64,000 nucleotides of DNA from a virus (Duplodnaviria > Caudoviricetes). This document shows, piece after piece, positions 11,216-44,267 of the stretch. Each line of letters opens with the position of its first letter. The first letter of the stretch is position 1. The notes beneath the pieces were generated by a model. That model had not been told where the DNA came from. It did no database searches and saw nothing but the letters and a program-made list of their open reading frames with translations. Made by a program: the position numbers and the translations under genes. The stretch lies in the IMG/VR virus record IMGVR_UViG_3300002220_003854, positions 23,967-87,966 of that record; one strand, written 5' to 3'.

Positions 11216-13012
11216 ATGAAATTACAAGAATTATACGAGGGGGTTGCTCCCAAACTTCCAGGTGCTGCCGGCGGAGTGCAAATAATGACTCCACAACAAT
11301 TTGTTGCCACGAACGCAGGGGATGAAGAACCTAGCTCAAAGCAAGATGACAATGAAGATATGACGGAAGGCTCAATGGCCGAAGTTGGATATTCTGATCA
11401 ATTAGGCAAATTGAATGTCCAGGATTCTGTAATTTTAGCTAGTGCTAAACAAGTCGGTACGATAAGCCAGAAACCGGTAATGAAGTACGAGCAAGGCAAC
11501 ACTACATTATTTTTCTTTACGGAAGATGACAAAATTTCGGCTCTAGTATTACTATCAGATCACAACAAATTGAGAGCAATTAAAAACTTCACTGGACAAT
11601 CTGGACAAATATATGCTTTGATAAATTACATTGTCAATATTGCTAACACCAAATTAATAATAACTCCGGATGAACCATTGACTAAAGAAGGGTTTCAGTG
11701 GGTTGCTAAATTGATTAAAAATCCTGCTGGGCTAAAAATATTAGACCTTAACGGAGAACCCGCGAATATAGATTCACTGCGCACTGAGTGGCTAAAATCA
11801 AAATCTACTCAAGGCACCGAAACCGGTAACACTGGAATAATTATCAGCGAATCGTCTCGTCAATGGAAAATGAAGCTAAAAGAAAATGAAGCTAGGCTTA
11901 TGCCACACATTTACTTTAATGTATCAACTACTAACAAGCAAGGTATCGCAGAAGCAACCAAACTCCCAGCAAGTACCCGAGAATTAAAAGGACAAGAATT
12001 ACAAGATTACCTAGATCGTATTCGCGAAAAAGAAAAAAAGAAAACTGACAAATATAAACTACCTTATATACATCGTAGTAGTGTATTAGGTTATTATAAT
12101 GAAGAAGGTAAAAAATACGACACCGACGCCATCAAGGATGCGTTGAGACAGAGACCAAAAAAACTACTAAAGCAAAACGAGAAGATGAAGCACAGTAATG
12201 GAGAATTAGAACAGTTCTTCAATATTGGATTCGCTGCATTGACCGGGGTTGCATTAGACGAACAGACAAACGAAATAATTATTGTCAATACGTGTCCTGG
12301 CGCCGGTAGTTGTAAAATAGATTGCTTTGCTATGAAGGGCGGTAAAATCCAATTTGCTGGGCCATGGTTAAGTGACGGTAGAATATTATCATTCTTGTTG
12401 AATGACCCAGATGGATTCTTTAGTAAACTAGATGCAGAGATTAAGAAAGAAGAAAAGCTGGGTGATAAAGGTGGGTATACTGTGACTATACGTTGGCATG
12501 ATGCAGGAGACTTCTTTAGCCCCGAATACACTGATTTGGCATTCAAACTTGCTAAGGCTAACCCACATGTTCTGTTTTATGCATACACAAAAATTGCTAA
12601 TGTCGTGTTAGCAGACAAACCTGCAAACTTTATAATCAACTGGAGTGAAGGTGCTCACCCAAGTCAAGAAAAACAAATCAAAGCAGGAGATCCTAGTTTA
12701 GACCAAACGAAGAACAGTCGAATCATACCAAGTAGTATGTTCTACGATTTGTTAGTTAAGGACGAAAAGAAAAACTTAGTTAAGGGTCCAGACGGCCAAT
12801 GGCAAGTGATACCTGATAAGTTACCTGAACTAAAACAACGTTTAGCAAAAGCATACAACATCAGCCCTAATAGCATATTAAGTTATAGCGAATGGGATAC
12901 AAAGGGTAAAAGAATTCCAAATATGAAATGGAATGACATCATTACCCCAGGTGAACCTGATATCACTGCGAGAGATCCTGGTGTATTGAGTACTTTGTTA
13001 TTGAAACATTAA
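11216..13012 (+). CDS. leader-bearing multidomain protein with C-terminal gp88/radical-SAM-like domain
   Basis: MKLQELYE leader; TCPGAGSCKIDCFA, IRWHDAGDF, FYAYTK. Confidence 0.75.
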   Translation: MKLQELYEGVAPKLPGAAGGVQIMTPQQFVATNAGDEEPSSKQDDNEDMTEGSMAEVGYSDQLGKLNVQDSVILASAKQVGTISQKPVMKYEQGNTTLFFFTEDDKISALVLLSDHNKLRAIKNFTGQSGQIYALINYIVNIANTKLIITPDEPLTKEGFQWVAKLIKNPAGLKILDLNGEPANIDSLRTEWLKSKSTQGTETGNTGIIISESSRQWKMKLKENEARLMPHIYFNVSTTNKQGIAEATKLPASTRELKGQELQDYLDRIREKEKKKTDKYKLPYIHRSSVLGYYNEEGKKYDTDAIKDALRQRPKKLLKQNEKMKHSNGELEQFFNIGFAALTGVALDEQTNEIIIVNTCPGAGSCKIDCFAMKGGKIQFAGPWLSDGRILSFLLNDPDGFFSKLDAEIKKEEKLGDKGGYTVTIRWHDAGDFFSPEYTDLAFKLAKANPHVLFYAYTKIANVVLADKPANFIINWSEGAHPSQEKQIKAGDPSLDQTKNSRIIPSSMFYDLLVKDEKKNLVKGPDGQWQVIPDKLPELKQRLAKAYNISPNSILSYSEWDTKGKRIPNMKWNDIITPGEPDITARDPGVLSTLLLKH

Positions 13013-13013
13013 T

Positions 13014-13826
13014 ATGAGAGCCATAGAATTTTTACAAGAATCTGAAGTCGTTCAAGAAATTGAACGTCTTGATCCTACAGATTATCAGGGAGGAAAAAAC
13101 TCCTTAAGTGATATGCAAACAGGAAAGCAAGTGAATCCTTTACCGGGCGGTAGCGGTTTACTGTATTCAATTGGTCCCGGACGACACAATCATTATGCTA
13201 TCAAACTGTGGGATCCAAAAGGTCCTGAGTTTGTCAAGGGCTACCCTAAACCTATCAGAAAACCAGATGAAGACAAGTGGGAATACCAAGATAGGATATA
13301 TCGATGGGAAGCACTACAAGCAGCCAAAAATAAAAAGATGCCCGGTCAATTAATCGGTGAATTAACGCTCGACTCTGCTTCTTATTTTCCACTAAAAGAT
13401 GCAGTGAAAGTTGATACGATTACAATAGACGAAGATTATCGCGGATTAAGCCTTGCTAAAGCTTTATATGGGATAGTATTGACTATTATGAAGCGTCCAT
13501 TGCTAGCTGGCGAGTTGCAGACACCTGGTGGTCGTAAAAATTGGGTCAGTTTAAACCAAATACCTGGTGTCGAAATGAAGGGGTATATGGTATTAAAATC
13601 GAATGACTTCACAGATGAAACAATCGACACTATTATGGGCGAACTAGGAGGACAATACATTGGTAAACATAATATTGCAGAAAAGGAATACTTTGCATTT
13701 GACGTTCAACCTAATACTACCAACCAAGAACTAGAAGCTTATGTTAAAACACGCATTAACAAGGTGTATTCTGATAGTTATCGCGATATAACAACTGGAT
13801 TATACGCGGTATGGGAAGGCCAATAA
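13014..13826 (+). CDS. leader-bearing GNAT-like acetyltransferase
   Basis: MRAIEFLQES; ITIDEDYRGLSLAKALY...QTPGGRKNW. Confidence 0.7.
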   Translation: MRAIEFLQESEVVQEIERLDPTDYQGGKNSLSDMQTGKQVNPLPGGSGLLYSIGPGRHNHYAIKLWDPKGPEFVKGYPKPIRKPDEDKWEYQDRIYRWEALQAAKNKKMPGQLIGELTLDSASYFPLKDAVKVDTITIDEDYRGLSLAKALYGIVLTIMKRPLLAGELQTPGGRKNWVSLNQIPGVEMKGYMVLKSNDFTDETIDTIMGELGGQYIGKHNIAEKEYFAFDVQPNTTNQELEAYVKTRINKVYSDSYRDITTGLYAVWEGQ

Positions 13827-13827
13827 A

Positions 13828-14307: not shown

Positions 14308-14316
14308 GGATAATGA

Positions 14317-15629: not shown

Positions 15630-15634
15630 CTACA

Positions 15635-16957
15635 TTACCACTCAAACAAACTTTCTTCTGCAGTGGGCACAAATGCAGGATCTTTAGATAAGTACGTATC
15701 CTCATCTGTGTATATTACCCTGAACTTATGTTTATTAGTGAGAACACTACGAATATCATCAATGCAAATAATCTTTCGATCCAACCCAGTGATATAGTCA
15801 CATAGCTTCACTGTTGTTTCATTGCAGATTCTTGCTGTATTACTGGTAGACTTTGAAGGAGCAAAATCAGTGAAACACTTATTCCATTTATGGAAGACTT
15901 GGCTTTCTTGTTGCTTCGCGTGCTTTATAGATTCTAAGTTATACCATAACTCACTAGTGTTAAAGGCTTCATATAGTTCTAACGCCCGTGTAGCCATATC
16001 CTTCTTGGTGCAAGTGTAGAAAAAATCCTGATTAAAGTTTTTAGTCCACCGTTGATTTTCTAACACTAAAGTAGGTAACTGTATGTGTTGCTCGTGGAAA
16101 GCCATACCGTAACTTTCTACGGTGCTTGGGTTGAATCCTATCCTAGCACTAGTAATAAAATCTACTTTTTCTTTCCCTACAATACTAGCACGAACATCGT
16201 ATTGCACCCCTAGTTTTTTGAGCTTATCTTCAAACTTTTTAACGCCATTCGGGCTAGTCATGACTTTAGCAGGTAATTTTGTTTGTTCGATTAAGCTTAT
16301 AAACAAATCAGGATTCTTTCCTTCTTCCCATCTACCTATGAATAGCACGCCCTCGCGGGGTTTATGATGTTCTTCCAAAAGAAGAGATTCTGTGATTGGA
16401 ATAGGTAAATGCCATGCACCGCACAGACTAAGTTCGTTAAACTTACTCTGTGTACCAACATACATCCCACTAATTTCGAGTTGCTTTCGCATCATTTCAT
16501 TAGTTGAATCCAAGAATGGATTCTTTGTATTTTTGAAAATCTGACTTTCTAAGTGTGTATAAGCTATGATTTGAATAACATCTTCTAGTCCCATGGTACT
16601 TGCTACTTGAACTGTTTCGTATGTGTTACAGATTAGCACATCATAGATGTTATGCTCTAATGCTTCGATTATTGCATTGCGAAAGTTTGCCATTCTTTCA
16701 TAGCAGAAGGTATCACCGTACATAAAAATATTACTATGATCAGTGTACCTCAATGATTCTAACGGAGCAATAACATTTGCCTTTAGTGATTTGACAAACT
16801 CATTATCATGTGGTAGTTTATCAGTGATAATATCTACTTTGATATTGTACTTATCCATTAATTCGCAAAAGCTTTTTGCAAATTGCCCTATGCCCCCATG
16901 AGGGATGAGGGTTTGATGGCTGATCAAAAACCCAATTCTTTTGTCGTAAGTTCTCAT
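15635..16957 (-). CDS. GT-B (group 1-like) glycosyltransferase
   Basis: PHGGIGQF; LFIGRWEEGKNPDLF; STVESYGMAFHE. Confidence 0.85.
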   Translation of the reverse strand: MRTYDKRIGFLISHQTLIPHGGIGQFAKSFCELMDKYNIKVDIITDKLPHDNEFVKSLKANVIAPLESLRYTDHSNIFMYGDTFCYERMANFRNAIIEALEHNIYDVLICNTYETVQVASTMGLEDVIQIIAYTHLESQIFKNTKNPFLDSTNEMMRKQLEISGMYVGTQSKFNELSLCGAWHLPIPITESLLLEEHHKPREGVLFIGRWEEGKNPDLFISLIEQTKLPAKVMTSPNGVKKFEDKLKKLGVQYDVRASIVGKEKVDFITSARIGFNPSTVESYGMAFHEQHIQLPTLVLENQRWTKNFNQDFFYTCTKKDMATRALELYEAFNTSELWYNLESIKHAKQQESQVFHKWNKCFTDFAPSKSTSNTARICNETTVKLCDYITGLDRKIICIDDIRSVLTNKHKFRVIYTDEDTYLSKDPAFVPTAEESLFEW

Positions 16958-16961
16958 TTTG

Positions 16962-17816
16962 TTACGTATTCCATGCGTTTTTGAAAATGTCACAATGAAG
17001 TCTAGCACTATAGCGCCAGCCCTTATTCATTGCCATTTCAGCAACTTTTCTAGCATTAGAGTTATATACCTCAAAAGTACCTCCAACTGGCATCAAGTAA
17101 ATTGGACCATCAAAGCCCCTTTTCTTGTACTCATTAACCGCTTCTTCCGCTTCTTGAACATCTTCTAATGTAGAGACTACGAACTTTAGATAAACAAATC
17201 CATATAGCTTATACTGCGCAATTACCTCTGGTTTTATCGCATTATCCCAAGCTTCGCCCGATGAACTAAGTTTAGGGCTAACACTGAAAGTTAATGCATG
17301 TTTTGTTCTGTTCTTTGCCCATTCAGTAAAGAATTCCCTAGATTCACTAGTAAGCATTTGCGTTCCGTTTGTTTCAAACGTCAACTCTTGTAATGATTGC
17401 ATTTTTTCATGCGAAAGAAGACTAGGATAACTGCGTTGCCAACCCAGTAAAGGTTCGCCGCCTGTGATCACTAAATGCTCATCGCACCAACGATTGTTGG
17501 GTAGTAAATCCATGATTTTATCAGCAATAGAATCGGTGCTGAGCATAGGACTAAGATGCTTGAAACGAGGATCCCATGATGCATAGGAATCGCAACCAGT
17601 ACTGACTAGTGGTAAAGATGTATATTCTTTTATATTAGCTACGTCAATACGGTGTCTTTCGTCACTCAATTGACCTTTAGGCATTCCAAATCCACTGCAG
17701 GTGAAGTTACAACCAAATGTTCGTAAGAACACGGATGGGACTCCCATGTACCTGCCTTCTCCTTGTATTGAAAAAAAAAAAAAAAGCTCGGAGACCTTTA
17801 ACTTCGAGTTATTCAT
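16962..17816 (-). CDS. queE: 7-carboxy-7-deazaguanine synthase (radical SAM)
   Basis: SIQGEGRYMGVPSVFLRTFGCNFTC...CDS, VITGGEP, ETNGT, SPK; poly-T tract near the start. Confidence 0.92.
   Translation of the reverse strand: MNNSKLKVSELFFFFSIQGEGRYMGVPSVFLRTFGCNFTCSGFGMPKGQLSDERHRIDVANIKEYTSLPLVSTGCDSYASWDPRFKHLSPMLSTDSIADKIMDLLPNNRWCDEHLVITGGEPLLGWQRSYPSLLSHEKMQSLQELTFETNGTQMLTSESREFFTEWAKNRTKHALTFSVSPKLSSSGEAWDNAIKPEVIAQYKLYGFVYLKFVVSTLEDVQEAEEAVNEYKKRGFDGPIYLMPVGGTFEVYNSNARKVAEMAMNKGWRYSARLHCDIFKNAWNT
17771..17785 (-). repeat. 15-nt homopolymer inside the queE 5' end
   Basis: A15 on the plus strand, encoding ELFFFFS where ELFYS is usual. Confidence 0.9.
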
Positions 17817-17837
17817 TTTAAATTTTCCTTTATTAAA

Positions 17838-19148
17838 TTATTTTGCTTTATTCGCTTTGTCGAATTTGTCCAAATCTAAAATTTGGTAATGATCTTTTAC
17901 TGTAGGCCATTCGTATATATTAATGTTTTTTTGCTTGTTTGTCAACTTATTTAGGCAAGGAAATAAGAACTTTTTATTTCCTAAACCAACATAGAGTGTC
18001 TTGTCAAATTGATCTTTTGGTATTTGTTTACGTTCACCAGTCAACTTGTTAATTACGTTAACTTTTCCTTTGTTAGGTCCTACATACCTAGCGCGGTTAT
18101 TATCAAATTCTTCTTTACTTACCTGGATATATGTGTTGGTAGTTTGATCCATTACTAATCGCAAGCCTTTGGTCTGCCCAACATATTCACCAGATGAAAA
18201 CTCTTTTTTTGATACTAGTACGTTATTTCCTGCTTTGTCTTTTGCTAAGACTTTTCCCTTTGTAGCAGTGAGATACCTATTACGATCTTTGTTGTATTCT
18301 TCTTTTGTTATTTGGATTGATTGATTGGTTGTTGTATCCAACACACATAGTTTACCCTTAAGAAGATGCGAGTGTATTGAATAGTGTGTATTAGCATGAT
18401 ATTCATCCAAAGATACTATGTATTTTTCTTCTGCATCGTTTATACAAGTCACTGAATGGTTTTGTATATGTTTCAGTCTTTTGTACCCGTATTCTTTGTT
18501 CTTTGTTCTTGCTTCTGATTTAGTGATTTTTAAAATGTCGTTTGTTTCTAAATCTAGAAATTGGTATCTACATAAGTTAATATCTTTATTGCCGTGAGGA
18601 AAATCCTCAAAACTTAATCTAGACTTATACCTATCCTTGTTTTCTTGGTATTCTTTAGATGTGATATAGACCCAGGTGTTACTGTGAGTATCAAATACAT
18701 ACGTCTTTCCAGTTGTGTGAAATTTGTATTTTGTTTGATTAGCGTATTCTTCTTTAGTTAAAGTGATGATATTTCCGTTTTCATCATGCACTCTAACTTT
18801 ATTTGTGGTGTGTGCTTTAAGCTGATCATATACGTCTGTCTTTAATTTTTGATATGTTCTACTGGTAATGCGTCCTTGAAATCCTTTAAATTCTAATTTA
18901 GGATTCTTGTTATTCATCTGTAAAAATGCACTTGATATCGGCAAAAAAGATGGGTATATTTTCCATAATAACCAATGAGCTAAAAAATGTTCACGCAACG
19001 TGAGTTTAATCAAATTACCAGGATCATCGGTTCCTTTCAAACATTTAGGTTGAATGTGATGTGTCTCTGTGTACTCACTTAATTCCCTAGGTTCTAATTT
19101 TCTGATATGGTCAATGAACGCTTGATACCTTTTTTTGTAATCTACCAT
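17838..19148 (-). mobile_element. free-standing HNH homing endonuclease with C-terminal repeats
   Basis: ETHHIQPKCLKGTDDPGNLIKLTLREHFLAHWLL; repeated I-x-K-E-E-Y..GKV modules; own CTAAATA and SD. Confidence 0.75.
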
Positions 19149-19257
19149 TATCCTTCTCCCTGTAATGTATTTAGCCAAGAAAAAGGATAGTTCATTCGGT
19201 AAACTTAATATCTTTTTGCAAAATGCAATCGTTCGACTCAAAGTGAATGCTAGTGTG

Positions 19258-20436
19258 TCAATATTTCGGTGCTAATACTTGTTCCGAAATTAATTTTGCT
19301 GTGTATGGTGCTAGTGTCCAGCCTAAGTGACCGTGCCCTGTATTATAGTACACACGATTGTTTCTCTTGCTTCTACATACAATGGGCATCATGTCGGGAG
19401 TCATTGGTCTGAGGCATGCCCAACTACTGTAATCGTGTGTGTTAATTCTAGGGAAATTAGTATGAACCCATTTTACTAATGGTTCTATACGGTCTCGTCT
19501 GATATCGTAGTTTTCACCAGTTAATTCGGCAGTTCCAGCAACACGGAAACGATTGCCCAAGCTTGCAGTAACTATCTTTGCTTGGTCATCAAGTAAACTG
19601 ACTTTAGGTAAATCTTGTTCATCTACTTCATTGATAGTGATACTGTAGCCTTTTACCGGATAAATTGGTAACTTGTCACCAATTTCTTTTGCTAACTTGA
19701 CGCTACCAACACCTGCACTAACAACAATGGCATTGTATTCATCTAGGGTGTGTAAGCTAGCATTATGCCCAGTCCTAAATATGACTTTGTATTTTGCACG
19801 CAAAACTTCTGATAGTTGATAACAGAATTTATGAATGTCGCCAGTCCAATCTGAAGGAGTCCAAGCTCCACCATAAATATCGTGAATATTTCGTAGAGTA
19901 GGATCTAGTGCTAATACTTCATCAGGAGATAGTAAGTCCCATTCACATCCATTATCATTATAAATGTTCTTGGCTTTTTGCGCAGATTCCCAGTAATCCT
20001 GTGACTTATAGATATGCAAGATACCAGATTTGCTTTGATCAAAACTTAGTTTCTCTTGGTCTATCAAATCATAATATAGTTTTCGTGACTCTATTCCCAA
20101 CTGTATTGTCTTAGCCGTGTTTCTAGCATAATCGTTGTTTGCTGTATGATATAAGAACTTGGCTAGCCATACTGCTTTATCCCAATCTAAGCTTGGTCTA
20201 ATCAATAGGGGTGCATCTTTCTTTAGCATCCACTTTATACCTTTGTATACATTAGCCCATGTATTCCATACTTCGCTATTACTAACGCTTACTTGTCCTC
20301 CATTGGCGAAACTAGTACGCATTGCCGGATAGCGTTCCTGCTCATATACTGTTACTTCATATCCTTCTTTGGCTAGGTAATATGCAGTAGTTACCCCTGC
20401 AATGCCAGCACCAATAACTGCTACGTTCTGTGTCAT
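19258..20436 (-). CDS. dadA: FAD-dependent D-amino acid dehydrogenase/oxidase
   Basis: VIGAGIAG, TSFANGG, PVKGYSIT, CLRPMTPD, NTGHGHLGWT. Confidence 0.88.
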   Translation of the reverse strand: MTQNVAVIGAGIAGVTTAYYLAKEGYEVTVYEQERYPAMRTSFANGGQVSVSNSEVWNTWANVYKGIKWMLKKDAPLLIRPSLDWDKAVWLAKFLYHTANNDYARNTAKTIQLGIESRKLYYDLIDQEKLSFDQSKSGILHIYKSQDYWESAQKAKNIYNDNGCEWDLLSPDEVLALDPTLRNIHDIYGGAWTPSDWTGDIHKFCYQLSEVLRAKYKVIFRTGHNASLHTLDEYNAIVVSAGVGSVKLAKEIGDKLPIYPVKGYSITINEVDEQDLPKVSLLDDQAKIVTASLGNRFRVAGTAELTGENYDIRRDRIEPLVKWVHTNFPRINTHDYSSWACLRPMTPDMMPIVCRSKRNNRVYYNTGHGHLGWTLAPYTAKLISEQVLAPKY

Positions 20437-20472
20437 ACATTAACTCCGTTGATATTATTATTCTGTACACCG

Positions 20473-21072
20473 TCAATAGTTGAAGTAATCTTCTGTTGTG
20501 GATCCTGGTCCATACCAAACTATATATCTTTTGTGCATTGTAGATTGAATTCTAGTCAAAGATTCATTTATCGTTTCATTTGGTGGTATTGCCAACCATC
20601 GTGTGTTGGGCTTGTTATCGTAAATCATGTCTGGCGTTGCGTCAGGTATGATTTCATCAGTTTGGGTATCGTACTCTACAACATCGTATCGTTGATTATT
20701 TTTAAGTCTTAGCCAAAGATTCTTTGATCCATGGGGTCCACCTGTGTTGGTAGCGTCTGACATGACTTTCACTTTATCATTCATGATAGCATAATCATAC
20801 AAGAATGTACCGTAACCCTGACCTTTATACGCTTGGGCCAATTGAGATAAAGCTACGACCCAAATATCTTTTTTGTGTTTGTATAATGATAGGTATCCCA
20901 CCAGATTATCCTTAGGATCAAAAAGACCATAATTCAATTCTGCGCCTTCATGAGTTTTTTTCAAAGTTAAATCTTTTATCTTTGTTACCGCAACTGAGTC
21001 AGCAAATTCAAATTGGAATTTATCCAAATATTCGTCTCTAGGCGGATTAGTAATGATTTCTCCTAATTTCAT
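20473..21072 (-). CDS. GNAT-like acetyltransferase with a weak leader match
   Basis: MKLGEIIT; AYKGQGYGTFLY. Confidence 0.7.
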   Translation of the reverse strand: MKLGEIITNPPRDEYLDKFQFEFADSVAVTKIKDLTLKKTHEGAELNYGLFDPKDNLVGYLSLYKHKKDIWVVALSQLAQAYKGQGYGTFLYDYAIMNDKVKVMSDATNTGGPHGSKNLWLRLKNNQRYDVVEYDTQTDEIIPDATPDMIYDNKPNTRWLAIPPNETINESLTRIQSTMHKRYIVWYGPGSTTEDYFNY

Positions 21073-21572
21073 GCAAATAGGTCTTCATTCCATTCGCGGT
21101 GACCTTCTCTAAATGCCATGTTACTTTGTGTCTCGCGTACTTCTACGCGATAACACCATAGACGTGCTGCTTCACCGGGTCCCCACATATCTGGAATGTA
21201 AACTCCATTAACATATTTGTAAATCATGTCAGCTAAACTTTCACAACCTAAATTAGGCAAGATTGTTAGTTTCATGATGCCACGTTTTTCAGCCTCTTTG
21301 TACCAATCTAAATGTGGATCTGAACTAGCTACTAAAGTAGTGTGGTCAAATTGACTCTCTAGCGTTTGCTTTAGTTCCTTCAAGCCACCATAATCTGCTG
21401 CCCAGCGGCGTGCATCTAAATCATTAGTCCCGAAATAAAACTTCATGCTAAACGCATATCCGTGCAGAAATTGACAATGACTATCGGCTTTATACTGTCT
21501 ATAGGCACATGGAAAAGCGTTGTGATACTCTTTTGTGGAAGTCCATTTATATGTTACTGGTTGATATGTCAT
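21069..21572 (-). CDS. queD: 6-carboxy-tetrahydropterin synthase
   Basis: HCQFLHGY, FDHTTL, CESLA, EVRETQSN. Confidence 0.88.
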   Translation of the reverse strand: MTYQPVTYKWTSTKEYHNAFPCAYRQYKADSHCQFLHGYAFSMKFYFGTNDLDARRWAADYGGLKELKQTLESQFDHTTLVASSDPHLDWYKEAEKRGIMKLTILPNLGCESLADMIYKYVNGVYIPDMWGPGEAARLWCYRVEVRETQSNMAFREGHREWNEDLFA

Positions 21573-21599
21573 ATTATTCTTTCGTTATTCTAATATTGA

Positions 21600-22277
21600 T
21601 TATTCAGTAAATGATACCATTCTCATGAACTCTGCTCTGGCTGCCGGATCAGTTTTGAACCCACCACCAAGCTTAGAAGTAATAGTAGAAGCCGAGGTAT
21701 CCTCAACCCCACGGGATGACACGCATAGATGAGTAGCATCGATAACAACTGCGATGTTTTCGGTTTCTAGGATGTAGCTCAGTGCATGATAAATTTGCTC
21801 AGTAAGCCGTTCTTGAATCTGTGGACGACGACTAAAATATTCAACGATTCTCGGCATTTTGCTTAGTCCTAACACCTTTTTATTAGGCACGTAAGCTATA
21901 GTAGCTTTGCCTACGATCGGCAAAATATGGTGTTCACATAACGATTGCACAGTTATGTTTCGTTCCACAACCATTTCATCGTAGTTCATTTTATTTTCTA
22001 CTGTAGTACATTTTGGGAATGCGTCGTAATCTAGTCCCCACATGGTCTCGTTTACAAACATTCGGGCTACTCTTTTAGGAGTTTCGGCAAGTGAATCGTC
22101 TGACAAATCAAGACCAAGAACATCCATGATTTGTTTGAAACTAGCTTCAATCAGAGAGATGCGGTCTTTTCGATCCAACCCGTTATGCTTTACGGGCGTT
22201 TCTACGCCCATTTTAACTAAGTGTTCGTGTACTTTGCGACCCAGTTGTGGGTCTACTTTTTGCTTATTAAATGACAT
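21600..22277 (-). CDS. folE: GTP cyclohydrolase I
   Basis: ETPKRVARM, SLCEHHILP, GLSKMPR, RRPQIQERLT, HLCVSSRGV. Confidence 0.95.
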   Translation of the reverse strand: MSFNKQKVDPQLGRKVHEHLVKMGVETPVKHNGLDRKDRISLIEASFKQIMDVLGLDLSDDSLAETPKRVARMFVNETMWGLDYDAFPKCTTVENKMNYDEMVVERNITVQSLCEHHILPIVGKATIAYVPNKKVLGLSKMPRIVEYFSRRPQIQERLTEQIYHALSYILETENIAVVIDATHLCVSSRGVEDTSASTITSKLGGGFKTDPAARAEFMRMVSFTE

Positions 22278-22292
22278 TTTTAGAATCCTTCC

Positions 22293-23147
22293 TTAATCGG
22301 ATATGAGTTTTGAAGTGTTGTCACCGTTGTGTGACAGAATGTATTTAGTCGAATCAACTAATTCTTCTATTATTTTTTCAGTGGTATATAATGGTTCATA
22401 TCCCAACTTTGCTAGTTTATCACAAGACATGTAAAATGATACTGGCTTTTGGTCAACATCATAGGTGTATTCTACCATTGACGTAGAACCAAAGTATGTC
22501 TTCGCATGAAGTACTGCATCTTTGAATAGTATTGGCTTACTATTTCCAATATTATATATTTGATTCAGTTCTCCTTTTTCCATAACTAAATTTACTGCCC
22601 TACAAAGATCAGATGCGTGAATGTAATCTCTGTAAAAATTACCACCATTAGCTAATTGGATTGGCTGATTGTTGATTAATCGTTGCACCAAGAATGTTAA
22701 TACATTCTTTTTACTAGAAGCTTTTTTGTCTCCTGGCCCAATTACGTTTGCAAACCTAAGTATTCGATACTTTATATTAAATGTTTTGCAGTATGTAATT
22801 AACAGTTGTTCGGCTGCCCTTTTGGTAATAGAGTAGAATCCTATTGGATCACACAATGAATCTTCTGAGCCTGGGGCTGGTACATTTCCGTAGACGAACC
22901 AAGAACTTGCAAAATTAAAAGTTAAATTTTTGCCCTTGCAATTTTCTAAAACTCTAATCAAATGAGTTAGATTGGTGTCTATGTCAACATAGGGGTCAGT
23001 AAATACGTTATAATTGTCAGTGGTACTTATAAGGTACAAAACTTCGTCTGTAACCGGAACCAGTGAACTGCGGTCATTTATAACCGACGAATACATCTTA
23101 GCATAATGTGATCCAATAAATCCCGTACCCCCGAAGATGTTTACCAT
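22293..23147 (-). CDS. NAD-dependent sugar epimerase/reductase (extended SDR)
   Basis: GGTGFIGS, YSITK (YxxxK), RDYIHASD. Confidence 0.88.
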   Translation of the reverse strand: MVNIFGGTGFIGSHYAKMYSSVINDRSSLVPVTDEVLYLISTTDNYNVFTDPYVDIDTNLTHLIRVLENCKGKNLTFNFASSWFVYGNVPAPGSEDSLCDPIGFYSITKRAAEQLLITYCKTFNIKYRILRFANVIGPGDKKASSKKNVLTFLVQRLINNQPIQLANGGNFYRDYIHASDLCRAVNLVMEKGELNQIYNIGNSKPILFKDAVLHAKTYFGSTSMVEYTYDVDQKPVSFYMSCDKLAKLGYEPLYTTEKIIEELVDSTKYILSHNGDNTSKLISD

Positions 23148-24412
23148 TTCTTTATAACGTCAATAATGTACTCTAACACTTTTTCGTTGTATAATGGTGT
23201 ACATCCAATAAAGAATACTCGGTCTAGTGCTAGATTAGCATTTGGATACTTCTTATAATCATCTAAGTGTTTGTATGCAGGATGCAATAATATATTGCCC
23301 CCGAAGTAATTTCGTGTTTGTATTCTATTGCCTTCGAAATGACTGACTAAGAATTCTTTCTCGTCTGAGTCTTTGCATATAATAGGTATACCAAACCAAC
23401 TCGGATCTGCATTTGCTAGTGTTTTAACTGGCGTAATGCCCACTTGATCGACTAAGTATTGTTCTATCAAATTCTTATGATACCGACGTTTAACGTCGAT
23501 TTCATTCAGCTTTGTTAGCTGCACTATTCCGACTGCTCCTTGCAAGTCTAGTGGCTTTAGATTATACCCAATATTACTGTAGATATACTTGTGATCAATT
23601 ACCTTGTCATATCCTTCTAGCCAGTAATCAAATCTTTTACCGCAAGTACCGCAACTTAGTAAGTTGTTTGCTCCCACACAATAACAGTCACGGCCCCACC
23701 ACGAAAAGCTTCTTATCATATCAATGAATAATTTGTCATTGCTAGATACCATTCCGCCTTCACCTGTGCTAATGTGATGTGCAGGATAGAATGAACAAGA
23801 CCAACTAAAGTAATATTCTGATAGGTGTTTACCATTGAACTTAGTACCTAAGCTGTCGCAATTGTCACCGATCAACAATAAATTGTGTTTGTCGCACAAT
23901 GCTTTGATATAGTCCATATCTGGCGGGTTGCCTAGCACAGGTGATACGAAAATAGCTTTGGTTTTATTTGTTATGGCATACTCTATCAAAGAAACATCAA
24001 AATTTAGAGTATCGAACTCAATATCAATAAACTTTGGAACCAGATTATTTTGTACAATGGGGGCGATTGTCGTTGGAAAACCAACGGGTGAGACAATAAT
24101 TTCTGAGCCGTCTTCCCAATTGAAATGTTTCTTTAGTGCCGTAATCATTACAAGATTGGCTGAACTCCCTGAGTTCACCATATGACTGTAGCCAACGTTA
24201 AAGGTTTTAGCGAACGCATCTTGAAACTCTAATACTTTATCACCGCTTACAATCCAAGTGCCGTTTAATACTGAATCTAATATGGCTTCTAGTTCTAAAT
24301 GATTCCAATATGGCCCGCTATACAGAACTGTATCCTTTGAGGGATCAAAGTTATCGTAGTTTTTAATATAGCTAGGTTTGTAGTGTTTACTGATTTCGGT
24401 TAAATTATACAT
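23141..24412 (-). CDS. rfbH: NDP-4-keto-6-deoxyhexose 3-dehydratase (RfbH/E1, DegT family)
   Basis: VNSGSSANL, SFYPAHHISTGEGGM with His in place of the aminotransferase Lys, WGRDCYC...CGTCGKRF Cys cluster. Confidence 0.85.
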   Translation of the reverse strand: MYNLTEISKHYKPSYIKNYDNFDPSKDTVLYSGPYWNHLELEAILDSVLNGTWIVSGDKVLEFQDAFAKTFNVGYSHMVNSGSSANLVMITALKKHFNWEDGSEIIVSPVGFPTTIAPIVQNNLVPKFIDIEFDTLNFDVSLIEYAITNKTKAIFVSPVLGNPPDMDYIKALCDKHNLLLIGDNCDSLGTKFNGKHLSEYYFSWSCSFYPAHHISTGEGGMVSSNDKLFIDMIRSFSWWGRDCYCVGANNLLSCGTCGKRFDYWLEGYDKVIDHKYIYSNIGYNLKPLDLQGAVGIVQLTKLNEIDVKRRYHKNLIEQYLVDQVGITPVKTLANADPSWFGIPIICKDSDEKEFLVSHFEGNRIQTRNYFGGNILLHPAYKHLDDYKKYPNANLALDRVFFIGCTPLYNEKVLEYIIDVIKKW

Positions 24413-25143
24413 TATTTAGGTCCAAATTCCCAACCAATTGGTTCTATTTTTATATCACCGAAGAAGTAACGGCTGTTCATGTAGATAATGGTACATATTC
24501 TTTCAGCTAAAAAAGCTAACATTCTATATTGCTTGTTCCCCGCTGTATCGATTGGTTGTATATAAGGTAGCGAATATTTGACACCCTCATATAGTTCCAA
24601 TACGGTATCAAACAAAACTTGACACATTCGATTGAACAATTCTCTGTGTGCGAAAAACATGTTACATGCTGACAAGTTATTGATCACATACAACTTATCG
24701 ATCATGTCACTAGTAATCGGTATTACATTTTTATTCGCGGCTTCTTTCAGAATGTCTAATCCCAGTTTTCCGTGACAATCCGTGTATTGTTGAGCAGTTG
24801 ACATAGAGAATCCCACGGGCGCAGAAATGTATATAGTATTATCGTTTAGTGGTGTACTGTTTATCTGGTTAGTGTCATAATATCTTCTATATTGATTGGT
24901 ACCAACAAACTCGTCGGATGTATTCTTCCACACCCAATACAAACCAGTTAAATCACCGACCCATTTGTTTAGGTGTGATATATTGTCACCTGTGTCATCA
25001 AAATAAAAATTCTTATTTTGCAGATATGTTCTATAACTGGAATTGATATCAGCCGAACCGCACATCAGATTCTTTTGATTGAATTGAGTTTTTAGATTTT
25101 CATGCAGCGGAAAACAATTACAGTATAAGGTTAAGTCAGCCAT
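24412..25143 (-). CDS. DUF4422-like polysaccharide/glycosyltransferase protein
   Basis: DDTGDNISHLN..DLTGLYWVWKN..VGTNQYRRY; FLAER. Confidence 0.7.
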   Translation of the reverse strand: MADLTLYCNCFPLHENLKTQFNQKNLMCGSADINSSYRTYLQNKNFYFDDTGDNISHLNKWVGDLTGLYWVWKNTSDEFVGTNQYRRYYDTNQINSTPLNDNTIYISAPVGFSMSTAQQYTDCHGKLGLDILKEAANKNVIPITSDMIDKLYVINNLSACNMFFAHRELFNRMCQVLFDTVLELYEGVKYSLPYIQPIDTAGNKQYRMLAFLAERICTIIYMNSRYFFGDIKIEPIGWEFGPK

Positions 25144-26318
25144 TAGTACTTCGCTTTTGGTACATATTTTCTATAATCAGTGGTCATACGTAACATTGTA
25201 TCACCCTTACCTTCTAAGATGTCACATATTCTATCAATAGTACCGTCGTTATAATCACTGATAAGACCCATCCTAGGATGTGGTTTGTCCAAAAGTTTTT
25301 CAAGTTTATTAGTTGCATCTTCAATGCTCCATGGAATATACATACGTTCATGATCGTTAGCGAATGTCTCTGGGAAACTACGATATGCTGGGTACAACAC
25401 ATTACATCCTAATGCGTCAGCTTCAGATACTGTGTTACTGACCCAGTCTTGTAAGGCACAATTGAATACTACCCTACTATTATTGACAATATTATAGTAG
25501 TCGTTTTTTTCAAGATTTTGATATATCTTTAGTATTCCGAATTCTGCTAGTTCTTTAGTTCGGGCCATATAACTAGAGTTGTTTGACTTTAGTTGACTGC
25601 CAGAACATACACAAAATTCTACATCGGTGGATGGATGCCTGCGGTGAAATTCTTCAATCAAGTCCATATAAAAATCTGGTTGCTTTTCTTGATCCCACCT
25701 GGCCGAGAACACCACTCTATATGGTCTATCACTAAAAGGGATAACAGCACTAACGCGACTTTGAACTTCATCTTTACCAAACGCGAGTCCTGATATATTA
25801 TAGATCGGTGCAGTCCACCCTGCTATTTTCATATGAGCAACCATTTCTTCGTTGGTTGCTAGGACACCGTCTACGAACTCATTAACCATCTTTTCATAGT
25901 GACCCATCCACTTTCCCATACCCCATACATGAACAAAGTCATCGGGGTCAATGGTCTGAGCAAGACAACGAACGTAAATACGAGGACGGTGTCTATTATC
26001 GAGTTGATTAAGAATATAAGGTAAGCTTTCTATACCAGGCTGAAACATATCTTCAAAATAGATAACATCTTCACTGGTAACTAGTCCAGATTTCATCATC
26101 TTAACTAGATTCATTAGTTGACTCATGCTAAAGTATGAACGACCATGTGCATCTAATACTTGACCAGTAACTATAGCTTGATCATTGCTGAGTGTTTCTC
26201 CGGGAACTAATGTATAATTGATGCCGCGACGCTTGAATACTCGCTCATTCCAATCTGTTAGTTGCAAGGTGTAGCGGGCTACATACGGCTCCGGACCTAG
26301 ATAATATAGGTTTCGCAT
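25143..26318 (-). CDS. GT-B glycosyltransferase
   Basis: VVFSARWDQEKQPDF; ALQDWVSNTVSEADALG; YRSFPE. Confidence 0.85.
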   Translation of the reverse strand: MRNLYYLGPEPYVARYTLQLTDWNERVFKRRGINYTLVPGETLSNDQAIVTGQVLDAHGRSYFSMSQLMNLVKMMKSGLVTSEDVIYFEDMFQPGIESLPYILNQLDNRHRPRIYVRCLAQTIDPDDFVHVWGMGKWMGHYEKMVNEFVDGVLATNEEMVAHMKIAGWTAPIYNISGLAFGKDEVQSRVSAVIPFSDRPYRVVFSARWDQEKQPDFYMDLIEEFHRRHPSTDVEFCVCSGSQLKSNNSSYMARTKELAEFGILKIYQNLEKNDYYNIVNNSRVVFNCALQDWVSNTVSEADALGCNVLYPAYRSFPETFANDHERMYIPWSIEDATNKLEKLLDKPHPRMGLISDYNDGTIDRICDILEGKGDTMLRMTTDYRKYVPKAKY

Positions 26319-26329
26319 TAATTAATCCT

Positions 26330-26581: not shown

Positions 26582-26657
26582 AATTTTATATTACATATGG
26601 CAAGAAAGGTTGGTACCAACCTTTCTTGTAAGCACTTCATGGAAAGTTTTTTACGCT

Positions 26658-26867: not shown

Positions 26868-26877
26868 GATATGCTCC

Positions 26878-27327: not shown

Positions 27328-27330
27328 TAT

Positions 27331-33595: not shown

Positions 33596-34186
33596 TCAGA
33601 TTTGTTTTTCAACAATTTTTTTAACCGTTAAGTGAATCCCAGGATTCACCTTCACCACATGCGGCATCATTTCATGCCTGATATAATTTCGAGTATATTT
33701 GGTATCATCGTTGCTTAGATCGTGGCACCATTCAATGTTTTTTCTGGTACACCAGTTAACGAACTCTTGCTTCCTAGTTGTCAAAAACGGGCGAATAATA
33801 TCTTTATTACGCAAAGGAATTACCTTGGGAGTTCCGTGCATACACCCCCATAGATATGTTTCAACGCAATCATCCAAATGATGACAGGTTACAACTGTTC
33901 CTAACTTATACAGAAAGTTATACCGTTCTTTTCGCCAAAATTCTTCCTGTGATTCGGCTTTGTCCTTGCTTCGCAAGGTCGTTCCCCATAGCATGGGTAA
34001 ATGTCGTTCGTTGCAGAATTTAGCAACGAATTCCATTGCCCTGTCGCTGTTTTCGGTTCCATGATGGAAGAACGCACACGTTACGTCGTGTTTTCTGCTT
34101 AAAAAATCTACCACCGCGACACTATCCACGCCCCCACTAAAGGCGACTGTGATTTGTTTGGGTAAAGGTAATAGCAACTTTAACAT
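33596..34186 (-). CDS. tilS: tRNA(Ile)-lysidine synthetase, short form
   Basis: AFSGGVDS PP-loop, HHLDDCVET, IRPFL, DLSN..YTRNYIRH; TTGACA-17-TATCAT upstream. Confidence 0.88.
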   Translation of the reverse strand: MLKLLLPLPKQITVAFSGGVDSVAVVDFLSRKHDVTCAFFHHGTENSDRAMEFVAKFCNERHLPMLWGTTLRSKDKAESQEEFWRKERYNFLYKLGTVVTCHHLDDCVETYLWGCMHGTPKVIPLRNKDIIRPFLTTRKQEFVNWCTRKNIEWCHDLSNDDTKYTRNYIRHEMMPHVVKVNPGIHLTVKKIVEKQI

Positions 34187-34230
34187 AAGATGCATGATAC
34201 ATGATCTTACATTATTTGTCAATGATTAAA

Positions 34231-35767: not shown

Positions 35768-36199
35768 TCAGCACCAAGACTTTTTTGCTTCGCCGAAGTA
35801 AGGTCTAGCTAATCCACGTTGAATTAATAATCCACGTAAGCTTTTTCCGTCTAATATAACGTCACCCAATACTCTTCCGCCGTATTTGTCCCATCCCATA
35901 AGCATTATCTGACGATGCTGTGCGCTTGCAATCATTTGAGTTGTAAATTGCGTAGCTTGTTTTCCCTTTTCTGCTTCTAATGCACATTTAGCTTTGGCTC
36001 CTTTTTCAGGGGTATCCACTCCGTAGATTCTAAGTGCTAGTTCTGATTTCAACGGAGAAGGTAAAAATTCAGCTTTAAATGCTACTGTATCACCGTCTAT
36101 TACTCTAGTGATAGGATAGTTGTATAATACACCTGACGGATCCGCGAACACAGATGTAGATAGAAATAGCAAAAAGATAATTAGTTTTTTCATAATCAT
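35768..36199 (-). CDS. thermonuclease (SNase-like) with signal peptide
   Basis: RVIDGDT, LRIYGVDTPE, DKYGGRVLG. Confidence 0.9.
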   Translation of the reverse strand: MIMKKLIIFLLFLSTSVFADPSGVLYNYPITRVIDGDTVAFKAEFLPSPLKSELALRIYGVDTPEKGAKAKCALEAEKGKQATQFTTQMIASAQHRQIMLMGWDKYGGRVLGDVILDGKSLRGLLIQRGLARPYFGEAKKSWC

Positions 36200-39299: not shown

Positions 39300-39314
39300 A
39301 TGGCTTAACTTTTA

Positions 39315-39965
39315 TCATGATCCGTCACCTGCATAGAACGGATCACTGATTACAATATGTCCGTCGCTACCTAGCATGAAGTTACCACTGTGTAAATCTA
39401 AATACCTTAATCCTAGCTTTTTGCCTAATTTCATTAAATCATAAATAGTATCCCATAGCATGTTAAGCCCATCTTCGCCTAAATGCATGACCAATTGCTC
39501 AGTTTCTTTAGAAGTATAGGCTCTTGCCATGAGGTCAGATAAGAATTTTTTTCTATCATCAGGAGTCGCAAAGCGTTCAGCGCGATCAGCAATCACTGAT
39601 AATACCTCATTCCACCCGGCTGCAGCACCTGTAAAAGGAAACAATCTTTCCATTTTAATCTGCAGATAAGTTCGACCATTGAACTGAAACGTTGCCCAAT
39701 CTGTAAAGTTTGGCAGAAATGGATTGGTTGGATGAGCGAGACAGTAATCTGCGTAAGCTTTAAATATTTTCTGACTTTTTGTAAGTTGTGACACTCCCCC
39801 ACCAGACTGACGACTTGAACCAAATATCTTCAATATCATTCCGTCTGGGGCTAGATATGCAGCTTGATCAACGCCACTGCTCAAATATTTATATCCTTTG
39901 TCTACTAAAATCTTCTTGATATCAGGATCCATATAAGATTCTAATAATATTTCTTGAATTTTCAT
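39315..39965 (-). CDS. leader-bearing protein-kinase-like enzyme 3
   Basis: MKIQEILLES; SSGVDQAAY, ILKIF, DLHSGNFM, ISDPF; paralog of 14317. Confidence 0.85.
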   Translation of the reverse strand: MKIQEILLESYMDPDIKKILVDKGYKYLSSGVDQAAYLAPDGMILKIFGSSRQSGGGVSQLTKSQKIFKAYADYCLAHPTNPFLPNFTDWATFQFNGRTYLQIKMERLFPFTGAAAGWNEVLSVIADRAERFATPDDRKKFLSDLMARAYTSKETEQLVMHLGEDGLNMLWDTIYDLMKLGKKLGLRYLDLHSGNFMLGSDGHIVISDPFYAGDGS

Positions 39966-40405
39966 TATTCTCGGCCCTTCTTAAGAATAGACCTAATAAA
40001 CCAAGCCTTCTTTCCATATAAGTCTTGCAGTTCAGCCATGAAATTAGCTACACCTTGCTCATTTTCTGTAGTTGCTTCGTTGAATATAGTTATTGCGCAT
40101 TGAATCATTTTTTCAATGTCATCTAATGTTTCCGCAAACATCAACTCTGCGCGAGGAATCTTTGTTTGGTCTTGAATAAATGTTAGTTCTGCGTACCGCT
40201 GAAGACTGCCCGGAGTATAAGAACCTAAAATTCTTATATACTCAGCAATTCTATCTATGGTGCCGTTTACATCATTATATAAATCATCATAAAATTTGTG
40301 GTATTCTAAGAAATTAGACCCCTCCACACACCAATGGAAATTTTGTGCTTTTATGGCAAAGCTTTGTGTACTAGCGAGTAGTATCTTTAAACTGTCAGTG
40401 AGCAT
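39965..40405 (-). CDS. dps: Dps ferritin-like protein
   Basis: KAQNFHWCVEGSNFLEYHKFYDDLY...DRIAEYIRILG...KKAWFIRS. Confidence 0.92.
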   Translation of the reverse strand: MLTDSLKILLASTQSFAIKAQNFHWCVEGSNFLEYHKFYDDLYNDVNGTIDRIAEYIRILGSYTPGSLQRYAELTFIQDQTKIPRAELMFAETLDDIEKMIQCAITIFNEATTENEQGVANFMAELQDLYGKKAWFIRSILKKGRE

Positions 40406-40407
40406 TG

Positions 40408-42186: not shown

Positions 42187-42187
42187 G

Positions 42188-43117: not shown

Positions 43118-43160
43118 GTAAGTCCCGATATATTAGTGTATTTATCAAAATACCATTTAA

Positions 43161-44267
43161 TCAGAACTTACCATTTGGATTCGCCGTCGGCGGAATACCA
43201 GCCCTACTAGTATACATATTAAATGCTTTAGCATTCTTTTTAATACTGTCAGGCTTTACGTCTACTGTTAATGCAGTTTTGAATCTGGGATCATTTTTTT
43301 CCTTCTCGGAAGGAATATAACCAGACGCTTCTTCTAAGTTAGCGCCAATAAGCTTTGTATAATAGCCAGGATCTTCTGCCAAATGATCTAACGCGATTTC
43401 CCTTGCGATTTGTTCATCTTTGGTGTGTTCAAGTTCAACTTGAATACCTTTAAACAATTGATCTAATATATGTTCTCTGCTGACTTTATGCTTATTAACT
43501 AAATCACTGATTGTAGGAGTAGGCTTACTAAGAACATTATTCTCTGTAGCGTACATATTTTCTACACTAAGGCTCTTGCTATGTAACTTATCTCTTAATG
43601 CATATAATTTAGTGATGTACCCTTGACTACGCACCATCTTATAAGCTAGATTTTCAGGGCCGAATTCACCTGCCTTATCTAGCCCAGCCTGTCTGTAGTT
43701 TCGTATCTTCTTTAAGACTTTATTAACTTTGTCTACATCTTCTGATTCTAAAGTACGAACAATCAATTGGTATAACTTATTGTACTTTGATTTAGTTGAT
43801 ATCTGGTCTAGATTGGCTCTGCGTTTTACAGGTAACTTCAACCATTTGTCTGATAACACACTGTACTCACCTAAGCTAATTACAGGTTCGTTGCTATCTT
43901 GTACGTACAATTCAACTGGTACACCGCGAATAGTTATATCGTGATTATCATTGTATATATTCTTTTTAGCGGTGAACAATTCTTGATAAACTTCATTGTT
44001 TTCGAATTTTGATAAGTCAATGATTATATGTAAATCTAAATCACTGTGGGAGGTATATGAAAAAGCAGCATTCGATCCTGAAATCGTAATATCTTTTACA
44101 TCTAAATTAGATACACCTAATTCTTCCATGAAATCTTCAGCAATGATTAGTAGTTGCTTTTTTACATCTGGGCGTAGGCGTTGTCCTATCCAAAGCTTTG
44201 GATTCAGTGTGTCGTGAAACTTGATAGCGTCACTCATCTTGAAAGATTCTAAGGTTTTAATGTCCAT
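43161..44267 (-). CDS. Pol-beta-superfamily nucleotidyltransferase fused to a DUF5661-like domain
   Basis: ISGSNAAFSYTSHSDLDLHI; VELYVQD; KGIQVELEHTKD..IALDHLAEDPGYYTKL. Confidence 0.75.
   Translation of the reverse strand: MDIKTLESFKMSDAIKFHDTLNPKLWIGQRLRPDVKKQLLIIAEDFMEELGVSNLDVKDITISGSNAAFSYTSHSDLDLHIIIDLSKFENNEVYQELFTAKKNIYNDNHDITIRGVPVELYVQDSNEPVISLGEYSVLSDKWLKLPVKRRANLDQISTKSKYNKLYQLIVRTLESEDVDKVNKVLKKIRNYRQAGLDKAGEFGPENLAYKMVRSQGYITKLYALRDKLHSKSLSVENMYATENNVLSKPTPTISDLVNKHKVSREHILDQLFKGIQVELEHTKDEQIAREIALDHLAEDPGYYTKLIGANLEEASGYIPSEKEKNDPRFKTALTVDVKPDSIKKNAKAFNMYTSRAGIPPTANPNGKF

Follow-up and report, generated by a model that had tools for sequence, protein, structure and literature searches.

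We describe here a short N-terminal leader that is common to otherwise unrelated genes in the last 64 kb of an 87,966-bp virus contig (IMG/VR record IMGVR_UViG_3300002220_003854, positions 23,967 to 87,966; this whole stretch of 64,000 nucleotides is termed the window, and gene coordinates are those of the window). Twelve genes of the window begin with the leader consensus, M-[KR]-x-x-E-[FIL]-Φ-x-E (Φ, hydrophobic residue), as does a further gene that lies upstream of the window on the 88-kb contig; the pattern is real and conserved at the protein level across related contigs. In our proposal this leader of nine residues, M-[KR]-x-x-E-[FIL]-[ILV]-x-E, is likely to be a capsid targeting sequence (CTS) and propeptide of the phage T4 type, carried by a split set of polyvalent effectors. 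Packaging, core binding, cleavage, ejection, and action on the host are what we infer from it; virion association is seen in one cultured relative only, Agrobacterium phage Atu_ph07.

The contig (GC about 38%) is 25% complete according to CheckV, corresponding to a full genome of roughly 350 kb. The DNA polymerase that it encodes shares 47-48% identity with the enzymes of Sinorhizobium phage Phosso and Agrobacterium phage Atu_ph07 and 42-43% with those of Rak2-like jumbo phages. Near and distant DNA searches against cultured phages gave no useful match and the placement came from protein-level searches only, by which the contig appears to be roughly a quarter of a jumbo phage (~350 kb) related to Atu_ph07.

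A shared leader on unrelated genes

A search of the whole 87,966-bp contig in six frames with the regular expression M[KR]..[EQ][FIL].{1,2}E gave 13 matches, 12 of them lying at the beginning of open reading frames (ORFs) of 110-598 amino acids (aa) or close to it (first or second Met), with 11 within the window and one upstream of it (MKYDELFE); the sole internal match is at position 15171. The GTG-start gene at 13828 adds one carrier beyond these, giving 12 in the window. All 12 N-termini listed in the initial annotation, which had been made from the sequence alone and had proposed a capsid-targeting-like leader on injected enzymes, are present at their starts, that at 13828 with the GTG codon. 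The starts at 35738 and 42186 are ATG codons slightly inside longer possible ORFs, and each directly follows the stop of the upstream gene. A motif enrichment test, which the annotation had suggested, scored 12 N-terminal matches where 0.08 are expected when the contig's own proteins supply the background rate of internal matches (Poisson p about 1e-22). After 2000 rounds of shuffling residues 2-31 in each protein, the mean was 0.04 matches and the maximum 2. As the annotation had stated, the replication and metabolic genes are without the tag, including the DNA polymerase, the clamp loader, the deazaguanine/sugar cluster, and other metabolic genes.

In an all-against-all BLAST comparison only D14317, E14973, and J39965 are paralogous among the carriers (named here by a letter and their start position), while A11216 and K42186 have an internal domain in common and not their N-termini. 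The similarity of the remaining carriers is restricted to the tag, such that about nine unrelated protein bodies are tagged. Position P3 of the putative cut site is L, I, V, M, or F in 12/12 window carriers, and the codons of the leader differ (AAA/AAG, AGA/CGA, GAA/GAG, TTT/TTC) while its residues stay. Three weaker matches had also been listed and these fared differently. The one at 52105 (MNKKQVINE/G, where the slash here and below marks the putative cut) stands as a plausible variant because its Atu_ph07 homologue is a virion protein (gp305, 2 peptides). The one at 44267 (MDIKTLES) has a conserved yet different N-terminus, which is that of the first module in the polyproteins of relatives. 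The match at 21072 (MKLGEIITN) is probably due to chance, as it has no final Glu and sits in a DNA-modification cluster.

Conservation was followed in 80 related viral loci, on contigs of up to 524 kb, that were collected by a search with I39299 (559 aa). The motif opens 180 ORFs in these loci, most commonly in the form MRAxEF[VIL]xE, and the tag is retained on orthologues of B13014, C13828, D14317/E14973/J39965, G35738, I39299, and L43117 at only 25-70% identity. Among 99 distinct nine-residue leaders, residue 7 (the P3 position, left free by the regular expression) is I, L, or V in 95, residue 3 is Ala in 54, and residue 10 is Ala or Ser in 35. The hydrophobic residue 7 means that the leader ends in hydrophobic-x-Glu, which is the T4 gp21 site, and this together with the occurrence of the motif on 180 ORFs and its retention on such divergent orthologues argues that it is selected at the protein level. 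In a T4-like cyanophage, Synechococcus phage S-CRM01 (locus L158, 96.2-101.9 kb), the neighbours of the nucleotidyltransferase homologue start with MKKLDQFLTE and MKLFNQFFKE; from these neighbours, CTS-like leaders may be wider in the T4 superfamily.

Leader-bearing proteins in Atu_ph07 virions

The virion proteome of cultured Atu_ph07 is published (Attai et al. 2018, Supplementary Table S5). Twenty-one ORFs of this phage have a leader equivalent to that described here (M[KR]W..[QE]L[TN]E or MRL.[DE]LLE) at the N-terminus, and when the table entries were assigned to ORFs by predicted mass and gene order, 19 of the 21 were in the virion table against a background of about 140/681 proteins (Fisher p 5e-12). 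Counted by family, so that paralogues score once, 8 of about 10 tagged families are in the table (p 5e-5). Among the listed proteins is gp196, the homologue of the predicted amidoligase I39299, with 14 unique peptides, and so is gp199 (77 aa), which adjoins the portal and starts with MKLTELF. Eleven leader-bearing genes form a tandem array at 39.5-52.2 kb (locus L138), and together with gp408, twelve tagged ORFs make up one family of ~255-aa modules, all of which are in virions (gp53-gp63, gp408).

The gel bands in which some multi-module proteins were detected give a hint of processing, with which they are consistent. Specifically, gp63 (41.4 kDa) has the leader, a GNAT-like module, the sequence ..SITE/T, and an array module, and it is most abundant in the gel band of the 29-31-kDa array proteins, which fits a cut at SITE/T. 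Similarly, gp53 (87 kDa), which has a P-loop module after VTE/G, peaks where ~20-kDa proteins run, and gp482 and gp483 (32-34 kDa) peak where ~14-kDa proteins run. A second type of leader, M..[LI]RK.[IL]N[IL][ILV].ES, is found on the Atu_ph07 virion proteins gp33, gp206, and gp594, at Atu_ph07 positions 165987 and 424790, and on two database polyproteins (P0005 and P0006), and is absent from the contig described here and from G001, a near-complete relative. The proteome of phage RsoM2USA consists of 10 abundant bands only, and its amidoligase homologue, ORF26, is not among them.

Head assembly genes of the relatives

The initial annotation had suggested a search for a gp21-like protease elsewhere in the genome: none was found on the 88-kb contig, and complete relatives have one. 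Peptidase_S77 (E 1e-22 to 1e-28) and Gp23 are encoded by Atu_ph07 and by four near-complete relatives (G001-G004), each of which has an I39299 homologue. In G001 (352 kb) the order is portal, a 74-aa small core protein (MKLFEMFDQ), an acidic protein, protease, scaffold, and major capsid protein, which is the order in T4. The small portal-adjacent protein of both G001 and Atu_ph07 (gp199) bears the same kind of leader. The major capsid protein of G001 has LLAE/SSAG at a position that, judged by eye and with no formal alignment, appears to correspond to the cut site of T4 gp23.

The tagged genes and their predicted products

The carriers in the window, with two variant starts, are as follows.

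A11216: 11216..13012, plus strand, 598 aa, tag MKLQELYE/G; multi-module, with GNAT-like-fold domain X (residues 55-245) and then a GP88 domain (PF17338, residues 317-481)
B13014: 13014..13826, plus strand, 270 aa, tag MRAIEFLQE/S; a weak GNAT hint only
C13828: 13828..14307, plus strand, 159 aa, GTG start, tag (M)RITEFVTE/AFD; weak below-cut-off match to DUF6934
D14317: 14317..14973, plus strand, 218 aa, tag MKITEILTE/A; predicted compact protein kinase (phrog_15752, T7 gp0.7-like)
E14973: 14973..15629, plus strand, 218 aa, tag MKSIEFTE/A; predicted compact kinase, paralogue
F34611: 34231..34611, minus strand, 126 aa, tag MRAKEFMKE/E; matches the C-terminal end of the 602-position phrog_23027 profile
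G35738: 34608..35738, minus strand, 376 aa, tag MKSTEFILE/S; predicted C-terminal zincin-like metallopeptidase module (residues 243-376)
H37623: 36751..37623, minus strand, 290 aa, tag MKSTEFIKE/M
I39299: 37620..39299, minus strand, 559 aa, tag MRFKEFVIE/T and a second site LLDE/V; predicted Amidoligase_2-type enzyme
J39965: 39315..39965, minus strand, 216 aa, tag MKIQEILLE/S; predicted compact kinase, 50% identical to D14317
K42186: 40408..42186, minus strand, 592 aa, tag MKSCEFITE/A; multi-module
L43117: 42188..43117, minus strand, 309 aa, tag MKINQIINE/M; Lys-rich
M44267: 43161..44267, minus strand, 368 aa, variant N-terminus MDIKTLES (MNIxELDS in relatives); predicted Pol-β nucleotidyltransferase with DUF5661
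O52105: 51557..52105, minus strand, 182 aa, variant tag MNKKQVINE/G; matches phrog_13138, 'virion structural protein'

Searches of the carriers against Pfam and NCBIfam gave almost no matches. D14317, E14973, and J39965 match the T7 gp0.7-type kinase family phrog_15752 (E = 1e-7, 6e-13, and 1e-8), and all three keep LDLHSGN and a second motif (NDPF, TDPW, or SDPF). They end right after this DPF motif and are therefore without a C-lobe, and their prediction as compact kinases is supported. I39299 had no match in a Pfam hmmscan. Its nearest ESM Atlas clusters (score 0.96, 216-217/256 features) have PF12224 in 81-83% of members, and GMEFE, GLEFVSPP, GLHINVS, and IEFRSPGG are invariant across 18 orthologues; these Atlas neighbours and invariant motifs support its prediction as an Amidoligase_2-type enzyme. 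A sequence profile built from the amidoligase orthologues retrieved no solved structure. In M44267 the Pol-β motif GS-x11-DLD is present, and the cyanophage homologues of this protein are annotated as nucleotidyltransferases. In the C-terminal module of G35738, HExxH plus E is invariant in 32 sequences and the model of the module (predicted local distance difference test, pLDDT, 82) resembles the minimal zincins Wss1, abylysin, and selecase; the protein also has a 170-aa insert that is not present in its 190-aa orthologues. Domain X, common to A11216 and K42186 (residues 290-485 in the latter, flanked by SVAE/S and GLVE/E), has a GNAT-like fold in its model (pLDDT 77). It should be noted that both of these fold searches gave consistent classes with weak E-values (0.003-0.04), and they assign a fold rather than family membership. 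For H37623 the ESM Atlas gave unnamed clusters only, and a weak lead to ATLF (17%) was not used. L43117 has two tandem repeats of about 49 aa (residues 54-97 and 103-146), both opening with SINE/G, followed by a DUF3008-like region at the C-terminus (below the Pfam cut-off; phrog_30268, E=7.5e-21), and the repeats may be candidates for small basic internal peptides like those of T4 heads.

The cargo list that has mostly been upheld therefore comprises, as predictions, three kinases, an amidoligase, a Pol-β nucleotidyltransferase, a zincin-like peptidase, and two GNAT-like modules. From the enzymes named in the initial annotation, the kinases, the amidoligase, a peptidase (as the zincin-like module), and the acetyltransferase (as GNAT-like-fold modules) are retained, and the nucleotidyltransferase M44267, which was absent from it, is added. 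The radical-SAM-like enzyme is dropped: no such carrier was found, the only candidate being the Cys-rich GP88 domain in A11216, and QueE, at 16962-17816, has no tag.

Split genes and fused polyproteins

In many of the relatives a single ORF of 1,243-2,006 aa holds several modules in a row, in the order M44267-type nucleotidyltransferase, G35738-type HExxH module, DUF5661, sometimes the C13828 module, and I39299 amidoligase. The B13014 module, whose orthologues retain the tag, lies further along the giant ORFs, after the amidoligase (about 1,130 aa into that of locus L043 and about 1,460 aa into that of L042), and other ORFs have kinase modules within them. Each embedded module is immediately preceded by Φ-x-E. 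Specifically, the C13828 module of the relatives is either standalone and tagged or embedded after ..ITE/AFDQPY, ..LTE/AFDKPY, or ..VNE/AFDQPY, junctions that correspond to MRITEFVTE/AFDSVY in the window. Likewise, ..VKE/AQMAP corresponds to MKITEILTE/AQMSP of D14317, and the embedded amidoligase junction SLRQEFALLE.. corresponds to MRFKEFVIE.. of I39299. The database homologues of domain X are polyproteins with [KQ]GVAE/G between modules, up to 8 times per protein, and A11216 and K42186 themselves bear junctions of this kind (GSMAE/V and KQGIAE/A within A11216). The end of the leader is thus homologous to a putative processing site between modules, and the tagged genes are the polyprotein of sister phages in disassembled form.

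A module swap can be seen in a gene outside the tagged set. The product of the minus-strand gene at 45273-46697 (474 aa) has no leader; it bears an HxGH nucleotidyltransferase motif at its N-terminus and is the orthologue (48% identity) of the database protein P0004. Its middle module (residues 267-370) matches the G35738 insert, at residues 137-240 of G35738; P0004 has domain X in this place, and the swap is at a PLEVSE/G junction.

Proposed mechanism and relation to known systems

In the mechanism that we put forward, the leader would bind the scaffolding core during head assembly so that the tagged protein is enclosed in the prohead, where a prohead protease of the gp21 family (Peptidase_S77) would cut after the final Glu of Φ-x-E in the leader. 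The same protease would cut at Φ-x-E between the modules of multi-module carriers. The freed enzymes would remain in the DNA-filled head and exit with the DNA at infection. The cargo would be a polyvalent repertoire that sister phages make as one polyprotein of 1,200-2,000 residues and that is encoded here by separate genes with their own leaders.

The precedent is the CTS of T4, which is present on the internal proteins IPI, IPII, and IPIII and is removed by gp21 (Mullaney and Black 1996; PMC9026906, PMC3012670), and both its role and its processing by gp21 have been published (PMC9026906, PMC3012670, PMC5694885). For head targeting, IPIII needs no more than its first 10 residues; targeting depends mainly on residues 4 and 7 and processing on residues 8 and 10, and the CTS has been suggested as a general means for T4-like phages to load diverse proteins (PMC9026906, PMC3012670). 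IPII and IPIII begin with MKTYQEFIAE/A and IPI with MKTFKEF..., and gp23 has its cut site in LTE/AEIGG. The leader described here, M-[KR]-x-x-E-F-Φ-x-E, is like that of T4, M-K-x-x-(x)-E-F-Φ-x-E, in being N-terminal and of 8-10 residues, in its Φ-x-E end that is mostly followed by a small residue, in tagging unrelated protein bodies, and in belonging to a lineage whose members have homologues of the portal, the core proteins, gp21, gp22, and gp23. It differs in being one residue shorter. There are at least 13 carriers on a quarter of this genome compared with the three internal proteins of T4, and the predicted cargo consists mostly of enzyme modules that are interchangeable with giant polyproteins, unlike the small basic proteins of T4. 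In T4, Alt is also a carrier of the CTS. The proposal of the initial annotation that the leader is a T4-like packaging tag is thus supported, indirectly, by independent lines: the motif match, the Φ-x-E end, the head module of the relatives, and the 19/21 tagged proteins of Atu_ph07 in virions.

Polyvalent proteins, including kinases without a C-lobe, are predicted to be packaged in capsids and injected (Iyer et al. 2017, PMC5512222). The window has their domain set, that is, C-lobe-less kinases, Pol-β nucleotidyltransferases, GNATs, and zincin-like peptidases. Standalone 'cassette' versions beside a large gene are a further common trait, and giant multi-domain proteins of this type are encoded by the relatives. 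The 2-15 effector domains per polypeptide that mark polyvalent proteins are found in the relatives (ORFs of 1,243-2,006 aa) and not in the window. In contrast to those proteins, modules in the window are mostly separate genes with T4-type leaders (A11216 and K42186 have 2-3 modules), and the module borders in this phage group have a regular Φ-x-E, often GVAE/G, pointing to a gp21-type protease. Neither a Φ-x-E site nor an amidoligase module was found in the searched passages of that paper.

Two other systems are partly similar. The φKZ-like phages (φKZ, 201φ2-1, SPN3US; PMC5694885, PMC7411985) are also jumbo phages that pack many proteins in the head, and their T4-related prohead protease cuts after Glu (x-x-E), some proteins multiply. 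However, they are of a different lineage, their motif is (A/S/G)-x-E and not Φ-x-E, and their propeptides are mostly over 100 residues with no common short leader. D14317, E14973, and J39965 match the family of the T7 gp0.7 kinase and keep its DLHxxN and D-P-F motifs, whereas gp0.7 is made after infection and is not packaged, and the three leader-bearing proteins of the window, of about 215 aa, terminate just behind the DFG-like motif. No paper linking a CTS to Atu_ph07-like or Rak2-like phages was found in the open-access papers searched.

If the tag works as in T4, the protein set delivered by jumbo phages of a large environmental group could be read from the genome sequence. The set predicted here has at least 13 proteins, with host-modifying enzymes well represented (kinases, a nucleotidyltransferase, acyltransferase-like modules, an amidoligase, and a peptidase). 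Such a reading would join the T4 CTS with the 'polyvalent' injected proteins, which are separate in the literature searched, and the joining mechanism would be the gp21-type cut at Φ-x-E. A broader proposal, to which we give about as much credence as doubt, is that the leader and the Φ-x-E linkers form a portable code for capsid entry and cut sites in a large clade of uncultured jumbo phages from freshwater and soil that are related to Atu_ph07. If this is true, polyvalent polyproteins could be split into, or rebuilt from, individually addressed genes, the injected proteome could be read from sequence, and the prohead protease would be the releasing enzyme of an exchangeable effector kit. The idea is directly testable since Atu_ph07 is cultured and its proteome is already published, and the loading of capsids with proteins could also profit from a packaging tag that is short, natural, and available in new phage hosts.

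Points against the proposal and alternative explanations

Several observations weigh against the reading of the leader as a T4-type CTS. The protease, scaffold, and capsid genes were not found on the 88-kb contig, which is 25% complete, and the link to a gp21-type protease thus rests on the relatives. Processing could, instead, be the task of the zincin peptidase that is part of the cargo. In G001 the tagged genes (186-201 kb) are not adjacent to the head module (3-9 kb), and in a scan of the Rak2-like phage phAPEC6, which has an S77 protease, there was no clear leader family; it also has no homologues of the carriers and hence is unusable as a second proteome test. In Atu_ph07, 12 of the 19 positive proteins belong to one paralogue family. 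The virions were PEG (polyethylene glycol)-purified and the list includes RecA-like, single-stranded DNA-binding, topoisomerase, and ribonucleotide reductase proteins, so that virion association does not prove location inside the head, and removal of the leader can only be presumed, as peptide positions are not given in the published table. Finally, most of the tagged genes lack a T4 late-promoter motif upstream. The initial annotation had placed them mostly behind TAAATA late promoters, a claim that fails: TATAAATA is upstream of one gene only (start 58640), and TAAATA, with 72 copies in the window, precedes about 13 non-tagged genes compared with four tagged ones (the variant start at 44267 counted).

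The alternative that survives best, although we regard it as unlikely, is that only the protease site is conserved, as a relic of polyprotein ancestry, and that M-[KR]-x-x-E-F has no address function. The site would be cut by the S77 protease or by the zincin of the cargo, and packaging would be set otherwise, for example by co-assembly with a carrier protein. Indeed, the embedded C13828 and D14317 modules keep Φ-x-E only and not M[KR]xxEF, the conserved HExxH zincin module travels with the cargo, and self-processing of polyvalent proteins by such peptidases has been proposed (Iyer et al. 2017). Nevertheless, leader positions 2, 3, 5, and 6 (R/K, Ala in 54/99, E, and F) are conserved as strongly as the cut site, which therefore is insufficient as an explanation alone. 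In T4 it is the N-terminal positions of the CTS that carry targeting (PMC9026906), and the embedded amidoligase junction still has R-x-E-F.

Less probable again is that the leader serves a destination or handler other than the head core, be it the tail, baseplate, or whiskers, or a phage ClpX-type unfoldase or other chaperone. The contig appears to encode a ClpX-like ATPase upstream of the window (contig 18821-20011, minus strand, 396 aa; assigned from N-terminal sequence only, by a zinc-finger-like CSFCG), ClpX/ClpA of jumbo phages may move proteins during assembly (Iyer et al. 2021), and the Atu_ph07 proteome does not separate head from tail. However, targeting to the T4 head core has been demonstrated by experiment for a tag that the leader closely matches, the small portal-adjacent protein of G001 and Atu_ph07 (gp199, in virions) has the same kind of leader, and the enzymatic cargo is unlike tail parts.

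We consider it very improbable that the conserved element is a signal at the nucleic-acid level, either a 5' stretch of coding sequence enhancing translation initiation or a recombination handle used in cassette swapping of the kind proposed for polymorphic internal-protein loci. In favour of such a signal, many of the tagged genes show no obvious Shine-Dalgarno sequence, their starts are tightly coupled to the stop of the gene before, and module shuffling is rampant in this phage group. Yet the codons vary while the residues are kept, the leader is retained where carriers are only 25-70% identical, homologous Φ-x-E junctions lie deep inside ORFs where there is no initiation, and the tag predicts virion proteins in Atu_ph07. 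Chance or simple paralogy, to which the three paralogous kinases and the domain common to two other carriers might point, is refuted by the BLAST comparison (about nine unrelated tagged bodies), the six-frame search (12 scored by the automatic gene set, or 13 on the contig with 13828, against about 0.08 expected), the shuffles, and the conservation across 80 loci.

Other genes in the window

Two genes inside the tagged block have no leader. That at 35768-36199 (minus strand) is staphylococcal-nuclease-like (PF00565, E 6.5e-10), with a signal peptide apparent from its hydrophobic N-terminus, and that at 39965-40405 (minus strand) is ferritin/Dps-like (PF00210, E 1e-15). Directly downstream of the block, at 33596-34222 (minus strand), is a PP-loop gene (TilS-like, PF01171, E 4.5e-33). 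Sugar-nucleotide and glycosyltransferase-like genes, together with genes of the 7-deazaguanine pathway, occupy 15635-29150 (minus strand), downstream of the polymerase.

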